A DNA stretch of 63,561 nt from Candidatus Omnitrophota bacterium (GTDB lineage: Bacteria; Omnitrophota; Gorgyraeia; Duberdicusellales; 4484-171), in assembly GCA_021735445.1 (NCBI GenBank), contig JAIPHA010000005.1, positions 1-63,561 on the forward strand. The letters are read 5' to 3'. This document shows positions 49,147 to 50,544 of this stretch, piece by piece. Numbering within the stretch: the stretch's first letter is position 1; the number at the start of each line of letters is the position of its first letter. The position numbers and the translations under genes were made by a program. The notes beneath the pieces were generated by a model. It did not search any database and was not told where the DNA came from. It saw only the letters and a program-made list of their open reading frames with translations.

Positions 49147-50544
49147 ATGAGTGGTATATTTGGAGTAGTTTCAAAAAATAAAAATTGTATGAACCAGCTT
49201 TTTTATGCCGGGGATTACCACTCTCATTTAGGTACACAATTTGGCGGCATTGCATTATCGGGAGAAAAGATTATCAGAAGAATTCACAACATCAGCAGCA
49301 GCCAATTCAAATCTAAATTGTTAGAGGAGTTCAGCTCTTTAGAAGGTAATAAAGGTATAGGGGCGATAAGTTATGAGGAGCAGCCGATTTATGTGAAATC
49401 AAGGTTTGGTGATTTTTGTTTAGTCACAAATGGCTGGATTAATAATTGGAAAGCTTTAACTGAAGAATTATTTTCTAAAAACTTTTCTTTTAGCGAGATT
49501 TCCGATAGCCGGATTAATATTTGCGAGTTAGTAAGTAAATTAATTTTACAAAAAAAGTCTTTGACCGAAGGCATTGAATATATGTATTCTAAAATTAAAG
49601 GCTCTATTTCATTATTAATTTTAACAAAAAAAGGTATTTATGCTTCCCGGGATAAATACGGGCTCTCGCCATTAATTATAGGTAAAAGCAGGGAAGGTTT
49701 TGCGGTTGTTAGCGAAACCGCGGCTTTTCCGAATTTGGATTTTAAAGTGGTAAAAGAGCTTTTGCCGGAAGAAATTGTCTTTATTAAGCAAAGTGGTTTG
49801 CAACAAAAGAAGAAAGGAAACGAAAATAATCTAAAGATTTGCGCGTTTTCCTGGGTCTATACTGGTTTCCCAGCTTCTTGCTATCAGGGCAAAAATGTAG
49901 AAAAGGTACGGGAAAATTGTGGAAAATTATTAGCCCGGGCCGATCAGGTTAAGCCTGATTTAGCAGCGGGAGTCCCCGATTCAGGCACTGCTCACGCTAT
50001 TGGTTATGCTTTAGGCAAAGGCGTTCCTTTTCGCAGGCCCCTGGTTAAGTACACGCCTGGGTATGGACGCAGCTATCTTCCTTCGGCTCAAAGTGTAAGG
50101 AATTTGGTAGCTAAGATGAAGCTTATTCCGATAAAAGAGATAATTAAAGGCCAAAAAATCGTACTTTGTGAAGATTCAATTGTTAGAGGCACACAGCTTA
50201 AAAACTATACTTTGACTAAGCTCTGGGGCAGTAAGGCTAAAGAAGTACATGTCCGGGTCGCATGCCCGCCTTTGCTTTTTCCCTGCATATTCAACTACTC
50301 GACTCGTACTAAAAAAGAGTTGATTGCCCGACAGGTTATAAAGTCTATTGAAGGGAAAAATAAAAAAGACATTTCCCGGTATATAGATGATAAAACTCCT
50401 AAATATGATAAGATGATAGCTCAGATAGCTAAAGACCTCGGCGTCACAACTTTAAAATACCAAAAAATTGCCGATATGGTTTCGGCAATTGGGCTGCCTA
50501 AAGACAAACTTTGTCTTTATTGTTGGACGGGAAAATTTAAGTAA
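49147..50544 (+). CDS. purF: Amidophosphoribosyltransferase, atypical (Ser instead of catalytic Cys1)
   Basis: N-terminus MSGIFG; PRPP loop 'VLCEDSIVRGT', 'GVPDSG'; Fe-S Cys in 'ICAF', 'FPCIF' and 'CLYC'. Confidence 0.9.
   Translation: MSGIFGVVSKNKNCMNQLFYAGDYHSHLGTQFGGIALSGEKIIRRIHNISSSQFKSKLLEEFSSLEGNKGIGAISYEEQPIYVKSRFGDFCLVTNGWINNWKALTEELFSKNFSFSEISDSRINICELVSKLILQKKSLTEGIEYMYSKIKGSISLLILTKKGIYASRDKYGLSPLIIGKSREGFAVVSETAAFPNLDFKVVKELLPEEIVFIKQSGLQQKKKGNENNLKICAFSWVYTGFPASCYQGKNVEKVRENCGKLLARADQVKPDLAAGVPDSGTAHAIGYALGKGVPFRRPLVKYTPGYGRSYLPSAQSVRNLVAKMKLIPIKEIIKGQKIVLCEDSIVRGTQLKNYTLTKLWGSKAKEVHVRVACPPLLFPCIFNYSTRTKKELIARQVIKSIEGKNKKDISRYIDDKTPKYDKMIAQIAKDLGVTTLKYQKIADMVSAIGLPKDKLCLYCWTGKFK

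Follow-up and report, generated by a model that had tools for sequence, protein, structure and literature searches.

The purF-like gene and its start

The DNA considered here, referred to as the window, is a 63,561-nucleotide stretch from a Candidatus Omnitrophota bacterium (assembly GCA_021735445.1, contig JAIPHA010000005.1, positions 1 to 63,561 of the forward strand). Its purine operon carries, at 49147-50544 on the forward strand, a gene for a homolog of amidophosphoribosyltransferase (PurF) that has no catalytic N-terminal cysteine and is referred to as PurF'. PurF performs the committed, regulated step of purine synthesis and is a textbook N-terminal nucleophile (Ntn) amidotransferase. 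Judged from its sequence, PurF' has a dead glutaminase site and intact phosphoribosyltransferase (PRTase) and iron-sulfur (Fe-S) parts, and it is probably an enzyme that makes 5-phosphoribosylamine (PRA) from ammonia. The gene and its relevant parts are listed below, with the basis of each assignment in brackets; PRPP is 5-phosphoribosyl pyrophosphate, and 1AO0 is a Bacillus subtilis PurF structure.

49134-49139, + strand: ribosome-binding site AAGGAG, 7 nt ahead of the ATG (sequence)
49147-50544, + strand: PurF' gene, encoding a 465-amino acid, Cys-less PurF-type amidophosphoribosyltransferase paralog, P0001 (profile and structure matches, tree)
49150-49152, + strand: codon 2, AGT (Ser), at the position of the PurF catalytic Cys1 (sequence)
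49213-49236, + strand: DYHSHLGT (residues 23-30) in place of LQHRGQ, with Leu28 where PurF has Arg26 (alignment)
49360-49386, + strand: residues 72-80, GAISYEEQP, where a deletion of 8 residues has taken out the glutamine loop RYSTxGxx with its Arg73 and Thr76 (clade alignment and pairwise alignment with 1AO0)
49840-49842, + strand: Cys232, [4Fe-4S] ligand 1 (alignment to B. subtilis PurF)
49975-49986, + strand: PDSG (residues 277-280), the PRTase pyrophosphate (PPi) loop (D278, S279 and G280 at least 90% conserved in the clade)
50161-50196, + strand: PRPP-binding motif VLCEDSIVRGTQ (residues 339-350; alignment)
50284-50286, + strand: Cys380, [4Fe-4S] ligand 2 (alignment to B. subtilis PurF)
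50512-50523, + strand: Cys456 and Cys459 (CLYC), [4Fe-4S] ligands 3 and 4 (alignment to B. subtilis PurF)

Translation of 49147-50544 is uninterrupted and begins MSGIFGVVSK. An in-frame stop lies 6 codons 5′ of the ATG, the upstream frame reading stop-R-I-R-R-I-F-Met, and no earlier start, cysteine or propeptide was found between this stop and the ATG. Serine is retained at position 2 in 119 of 121 close orthologs (59-99% identity, labeled Omnitrophota by their sources), and MSG is also the start of a protein of 99% identity that comes from an independent metagenome. Across 91 independently assembled PurF' loci (L005-L095), codon 2 is AGC in 31, AGT in 11, GGN in 44, ACT in one and GTT in one; TGY, which would encode cysteine, occurs in none. 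A sequencing error or a wrongly assigned start is ruled out as the cause of Ser2 by the upstream stop, the good ribosome-binding site, the serine of the orthologs, and the lack of TGY codons. The serine codons at these 91 loci are all AGY, with no TCN, and the glycine codon GGN is equally common. Both TGY (Cys) and GGY (Gly) are one substitution away from AGY, and the codons suggest a history in which position 2 went from Cys to Ser and then to Gly.

Several of these features had been pointed out in a sequence-only reading of the window, namely an ATG-AGT start with serine in place of cysteine, the replacement of QHRGQ, an intact PRPP loop with four Fe-S cysteines, and a place in the core pur cluster. 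All are seen in the sequence, where the gene lies between purQ and purM, and Ser2 proved to be conserved in orthologs.

Loss of the glutamine site and conservation of the transferase

The relationships of the protein were examined in a tree of 86 full-length sequences, representatives chosen at 50% identity, with a comparison set of 43 PurF' and 34 Cys-containing sequences. The window protein falls within the 43-member group marked by DYHSHLG, which is separate from all Cys-containing PurFs with a support of 99 in the Shimodaira-Hasegawa-like approximate likelihood ratio test (SH-aLRT).

Members of this clade have lost far more than the nucleophile. Position 2 is occupied by Gly (16), Ser (15), Thr (5), Ala (2) or Asp (1), as opposed to Cys in 27 aligned columns of the Cys-containing set. 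The column of Arg26 holds Leu in 34 of the 43 PurF' sequences versus Arg in all 34 Cys-containing ones. The glutamine loop R-Y-S-T-x-G-x-x, with its Arg73 and Thr76, is deleted in every PurF' (43/43) and kept in the long-loop Cys-containing forms. Likewise, the oxyanion-hole residue Asn101 and Asp127 are not conserved in PurF', the alignment at Asp127 being ambiguous, while the Cys-containing set has Asn in 21/34 and Asp in 26/34. An oxyanion-hole pair, Asn95-Gly96, is retained at 97% or more in the Omnitrophota subfamily only, and no pattern of covariation between Ser2 and the oxyanion-hole Asn was seen across the clade. Unlike in Ser-type Ntn hydrolases (for example, the penicillin acylase type), serine is thus not a family-wide nucleophile; it is typical of the Omnitrophota subfamily (119/121), with glycine as frequent in the clade as a whole. 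The cysteine-to-serine replacement that had first drawn attention to the gene is real, but the loss is wider: the whole glutamine site is gone, and position 2 is as often glycine.

In contrast to the glutamine site, the transferase half is preserved. Conservation is complete or at least 90% at D278, S279, G280, K301, R308, K325, D343, S344, R347 and G348. The PRPP motif VLCEDSIVRGTQ aligns to VMVDDSIVRGTT of 1AO0, and its D343, S344 and R347 are invariant in the alignment examined (A1). The type I PRTase signature is therefore present, as EDSIVRGT (342-349) together with the PPi loop PDSG (277-280). In the alignment, C232, C380, C456 and C459 match the four cluster-binding cysteines of 1AO0, and each is kept in 37-42 of the 43 clade representatives.

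The glutaminase domain is also under constraint. Its clade-specific conserved residues comprise D23, Y24, H25, S26, H47, F54, K55, F58, S75, N124 and G142, and the ratio of N-domain to PRTase-domain identity is 0.86 in PurF' and 0.80 in canonical PurF. Such a similarity to canonical PurF indicates that the dead glutaminase domain is not drifting. Furthermore, position 2 is always occupied by a small residue that allows removal of the initiator methionine, which suggests that the Ntn fold still requires its buried, free N-terminus.

Family scores and structure comparisons agree on a divergent PurF. PurF' reaches 219.4 bits against TIGR01134 (purF), short of the cut-off of 350, and its Pfam matches are limited to the GATase_6/7 models. 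The closest solved relatives are the B. subtilis PurF structures 1AO0/1GPH (E 1e-53, 28-29% identity), and no solved structure more than 29% identical to PurF' was found. An AlphaFold2 model built from 35 clade members has a mean predicted local distance difference test (pLDDT) score of 94.8 and a predicted template modeling (pTM) score of 0.92, and it matches 1AO0 over its full length (E 1.9e-40, TM-score 0.84/0.86). This full-length superposition points to the complete two-domain (Ntn plus PRTase) fold of an Fe-S-type PurF. The protein nevertheless lacks what defines PurF as a glutamine amidotransferase, namely Cys1, the glutamine-binding residues, and a score above the hidden Markov model cut-off. 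It is also distinct from GlmS, which the genome encodes in a separate gene (L003).

Distribution and genomes with PurF' only

A degenerate-pattern scan of species-representative genomes gave at least 599 loci. The best 80 of these comprise, among bacteria, Omnitrophota, Planctomycetota, Desulfobacterota, Clostridia, Bacteroidales, Treponema, Verrucomicrobiota, Acidobacteriota, Gemmatimonadota and Elusimicrobiota, and, among archaea, Methanobacteriota, Altiarchaeota, Thermoplasmatota and Asgard archaea. Carriers thus span many phyla in both domains and are mostly anaerobic; this distribution bears out the earlier remark that similar Cys-less proteins occur in anaerobes. Within the Omnitrophota, PurF' is carried by 64 of 151 sampled genomes and is patchy even within genera.

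The source genome itself (assembly of 1.17 Mb in 37 contigs, 84% complete) was searched for a canonical purF, and one was found on contig C12, flanked by carB and a DUF1846 gene. Its product has Cys1 and the expected motifs (MCGIFAV...LQHRGEE...GHVRYSTTG) and scores 518 bits against TIGR01134. PurF' is thus the second PurF-type enzyme of this organism, and the possibility that it is the only one is ruled out. It follows that this organism does not have to draw on free ammonia for its first purine step. The sequence-only reading had proposed a first step running on free ammonia; an ammonia-dependent reaction remains the best-supported one for PurF', but the organism, having a canonical PurF, is not obliged to rely on it. 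Other genes of the pathway (purC, purH and purN) are found elsewhere in the genome. The purC match, on contig C34 (30687-31529, − strand), contains one TAG and one TAA, which may reflect a boundary effect or a disrupted gene.

Elsewhere in the phylum, PurF' stands alone in some genomes. Nine of the 64 carriers (G135, G097, G075, G067, G031, G037, G069, G085 and G056) have no other PurF homolog; their completeness is 89-98%, two of the assemblies consist of 8-9 contigs, and their other matches are GlmS-like and AsnB-like. In a second sample, three genomes of one family (G193, G194 and G198) gave only a match in the PurF' range at the stricter threshold of that search. PurF'-only genomes in the Omnitrophota therefore number at least 12 and are spread over several families, and none was found among nine genomes tested from other phyla. 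All five PurF'-only genomes that were tested have purD, whose product consumes PRA, and this combination favors a real ammonia-using PRA synthase.

Two of these genomes also show where the gene is placed. In G097, the cluster purB-purSL-PurF'-purM...purD-purE matches that of the window. In G135, which belongs to the window's own family, PurF' lies in the order carB-DUF1846-PurF', the neighborhood that canonical purF occupies in the source genome. The co-existence of three states across the phylum (canonical PurF only, both, or PurF' only) is the pattern expected of isofunctional enzymes.

The purine operon and gene neighborhoods

PurF' is part of a tight operon with the order purB-purSL-purQ-PurF'-purM-purD-purE, in which the gaps flanking it measure 22 and 11 nt. 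The other members of the operon are as follows, with the profile match of each in brackets; FGAM is formylglycinamidine ribonucleotide.

44056-45348, + strand: purB, adenylosuccinate lyase, first gene of the cluster (TIGR00928, 453 bits)
45449-48337, + strand: purS-purL fusion, 962 amino acids (TIGR01736, 606 bits; PurS-like N-terminus)
48351-49124, + strand: purQ, glutaminase subunit of FGAM synthase, ending 22 nt ahead of PurF' (TIGR01737, 200 bits)
50556-51554, + strand: purM, beginning 11 nt past PurF' (TIGR00878, 386 bits)
51572-52849, + strand: purD, for the PRA-consuming enzyme, two genes downstream of PurF' (TIGR00877, 570 bits)
52906-53361, + strand: purE-like gene (PF00731, 135 bits)

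Some of these genes have features of their own. PurL carries a fused N-terminal PurS-like region (45449-48337), and the glutaminase PurQ stays a separate gene; PurSL with a separate PurQ is a domain layout between those of the three-subunit and single-chain FGAM synthases. The PurE-like protein scores 125.5 bits against TIGR01162, under the cut-off of 149.6. One of its active-site loops has SAHR, and the other reads AGLAAALPG, where the sequence of class I PurE is AAHLPG. The 84%-complete assembly yielded no purK, and the PurE-like enzyme may be either a mutase or a direct AIR carboxylase. Immediately past the pur cluster, a gene at 53392-54456 (+) joins a TsaC/Sua5-type threonylcarbamoyl-AMP synthase domain to a low-molecular-weight phosphotyrosine phosphatase/ArsC-like domain, and is followed by rpiB, glyA, a dCMP deaminase gene and nrdR. 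An Rfam scan of the whole window for regulatory RNAs gave no match.

Clusters like that of the window recur in the relatives L019, L021 and G097, and most PurF' loci have no pur neighbor inside 8 kb. The only recurrent neighbors at the 91 loci are canonical purF, carB, DUF1846, purM, purB, purQ and purSL. For example, canonical purF adjoins PurF' in about 12 of 80 loci plus L008 and L015. No constant partner gene emerged when the 882 flanking open reading frames of the 91 loci were clustered all against all; the result was pur genes, carB and DUF1846, each at no more than about 12 loci. The gene for PurQ is near PurF' in about 6 of 92 loci, and solely where both lie within a pur cluster.

The DUF1846 gene (PF08903 plus PF20921) directly follows canonical purF in the order carB-purF-DUF1846 (contig C12 of the source genome, G000; L001, 1498-2886 and 2874-4322). 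It adjoins PurF' in other Omnitrophota, one Pirellulales genome, and one Treponema genome (L097, L014, L020, L029, L030 and L061). These placements suggest a link of DUF1846 to the first purine step or to the use of PRPP.

Comparison with known systems

The nearest characterized relative is the [4Fe-4S]-type PurF of B. subtilis (1AO0/1GPH; TIGR01134; EC 2.4.2.14), with which PurF' has in common the two-domain fold, the PRPP and PPi motifs, the four Fe-S cysteines, the purine-operon context, and Tyr238/Pro242/Ser244. Unlike B. subtilis PurF, PurF' has Ser for Cys1 and Leu for Arg26, lacks the loop that bears Arg73 and Thr76, and does not conserve Asp127. In addition, it contains motifs that are foreign to the B. 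subtilis enzyme, namely DYHSHLG, IHxI..QFKxKF, N124, and RGTQ for RGTT.

A third type of PurF was encountered in two small Omnitrophota genomes (L096 in G002, contig C43; L099 in G011, contig C62) and is the sole PurF homolog of G002. It retains Cys1 and LQHRGQ, yet its glutamine loop is short and its PRTase half resembles that of PurF'; it shares 42% identity with the window protein and scores 317 bits against TIGR01134, under the cut-off. Shared with PurF' are the short loop and the motifs DDSIVRGTQ, ACPPLMHPC and AIGLPKEKLCLxCW, while Cys1 and LQHRGQ set it apart. From these motifs, the short-loop PurF is probably still glutamine-dependent, and in evolutionary terms it looks intermediate between canonical PurF and PurF'.

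The use of either of two nitrogen sources for one step has precedents. AsnA and AsnB, like the two types of NAD+ synthetase, exemplify steps for which a genome may encode a glutamine amidotransferase, an enzyme that takes free NH3, or the two side by side. AsnA and AsnB are not related to each other. In PurF', unlike AsnA, the ammonia form would be a derived paralog that retains a dead glutaminase domain.

The idea of an ammonia-dependent PurF' is already in print. Brown et al. (2011, Biol Direct 6:63, PMC3261824) proposed, without a test, that Cys-less PurF' proteins of Crenarchaeota are ammonia-dependent PRPP aminotransferases. The paralogs that they described are encoded near purF or other pur genes, and include a protein with Ser at the nucleophile position, Mlab_0150 of Methanocorpusculum labreanum (PMC3261824). 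The window protein, matched by description, fits this PurF' class, with no N-terminal Cys, a sequence that is neither AsnB nor GlmS, and a link to purine genes. There are also differences: many crenarchaeal PurF' proteins have Ala or Val at the nucleophile position (PMC3261824), as against Gly, Ser or Thr in the clade described here, and the present family is both bacterial and archaeal and stands alone in some genomes. The same paper cites work on Escherichia coli PurF in which replacement of Cys1 by Ala or Ser abolished glutamine-dependent activity and left NH3-dependent activity in place (as cited in PMC3261824), a behavior with which an ammonia-using PurF' agrees.

Proposed function

Taken together, PurF' is probably an ammonia-using PRA synthase, that is, a homolog of B. 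subtilis-type [4Fe-4S] PurF that neither binds nor hydrolyzes glutamine. Its PRTase half would bind PRPP in the intact type I site, and free NH3 would enter by the lidless former glutamine pocket and a conserved interdomain path. PRPP and NH3 would then be converted to PRA, which would be handed to PurD. Where both enzymes are present, PurF' would serve as an ammonia isozyme alongside canonical, glutamine-dependent PurF, saving the ATP spent by glutamine synthetase, much as AsnA may be compared with AsnB. The product, the nitrogen donor and the ATP-saving rationale are what we infer from this scheme, in which D23, Y24, H25, H47, F54, K55 and N124, or the free N-terminal amine, may take part in the uptake or deprotonation of NH4+.

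A number of observations weigh against this proposal. Canonical PurF is kept by about 55 of the 64 Omnitrophota carriers and by all ten further carriers that were tested (nine from other phyla and one omnitrophotan, L029), such that PurF' may have a PurF-dependent role. The PurF'-only genomes are metagenome-assembled and 89-98% complete, and some of the absences could be assembly gaps. Deviations also occur in the PRTase motifs, with RGTQ versus RGTT and KYTPGxGRSY versus the canonical flexible-loop motif. The conserved new pocket motifs (DYHSHLG, IH, QFKxKF and N124) are superfluous to a model in which the pocket is simply an open hole for NH3, and hint at a ligand or partner. Finally, no biochemical test of any clade member was found in the literature searched, which yielded only the 2011 comparative paper.

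The pocket motifs can be accommodated in a more specific, though doubtful, version of events in which the former glutamine pocket (D23, Y24, H25, H27, H47, F54, K55, N124 and the small N-terminal residue) has been rebuilt as a new functional site. Such a site might capture and deprotonate NH4+ and feed the channel, making PurF' an ammonia-specialized PRA synthase able to replace PurF. Alternatively, it might be a Ser-Ntn site with a non-glutamine nitrogen donor in the Ser2/Asn95-Gly96 subfamily of Omnitrophota.

Alternative explanations

The frequent co-occurrence with canonical PurF could mean that PurF' is a non-catalytic or regulatory partner, forming mixed oligomers that tune the activity or feedback inhibition of the canonical enzyme. 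As described above, the two proteins co-occur in 10/10 and about 55/64 genomes and their genes adjoin each other at L008, L015 and about 12 of 80 loci, and in Crenarchaeota PurF and PurF' are always paired (PMC3261824). A non-catalytic subunit is, however, difficult to reconcile with a complete catalytic PRTase set and Fe-S ligands that are conserved clade-wide, and at least 12 Omnitrophota genomes of several families have no canonical PurF to regulate, with purD present in 5/5 tested. In the source genome, moreover, the two genes belong to separate operons on separate contigs. A regulatory role is therefore unlikely.

A different reaction is a distinctly improbable alternative. PurF' might transfer the phosphoribosyl group to another nucleophile, or use its N-terminal Ser as an Ntn nucleophile on another amide donor. 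In the Omnitrophota subfamily, Ser2 (119/121) and Asn95-Gly96 (at least 97%) are indeed conserved; throughout the clade, position 2 is always small and permits removal of Met, the pocket is remodeled yet conserved, and the PRTase motif has exchanged T for Q350. Nonetheless, Gly occupies position 2 in about 40% of the clade, the Asn is not clade-wide, and Ser and Asn do not covary. The gene is also found in pur operons and is the sole PurF homolog of genomes that have purD.

Less probable still is that PurF' is fed ammonia by another glutaminase, either the adjacent PurQ, as had been proposed from the window alone, or a class I amidotransferase docked on the remodeled N-domain. In the window, purQ ends 22 nt upstream; it is adjacent in L008, L015 and L021 and nearby in L026 and L060, and the conserved new motifs on the surface could serve for docking. 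Adjacency of purQ is confined to pur clusters (about 6/92 loci) and the neighbor clustering produced no constant partner, so comparative support for PurQ-supplied ammonia is lacking and that proposal was not upheld. The 16-kb cluster of the PurF'-only genome G097 has no purQ within it, and PurQ already has a defined partner in PurL.

That PurF' is a decaying duplicate, a functionless relic of an enzyme, is hardly tenable: the loss of the catalytic cysteine and glutamine site and a score under the TIGR01134 cut-off speak for it, but the frame is intact, more than 100 lineages have orthologs of 59-99% identity in which motifs are strongly conserved, and the clade spans bacteria and archaea with an N-domain constraint near that of canonical PurF, a degree of conservation that contradicts decay.

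Significance

A large clade of bacterial and archaeal proteins has dropped glutaminase chemistry from PurF while the domain that performed it remains under selection, and in some lineages a member of this clade is the sole PurF. If PurF' is ammonia-dependent, annotations and metabolic models in which such proteins carry a glutamine-dependent “amidophosphoribosyltransferase” label would be imprecise, and the remodeled, conserved pocket may hold an unknown ligand or an ammonia-handling site. Many anaerobes would then be able to begin purine synthesis from free ammonia.

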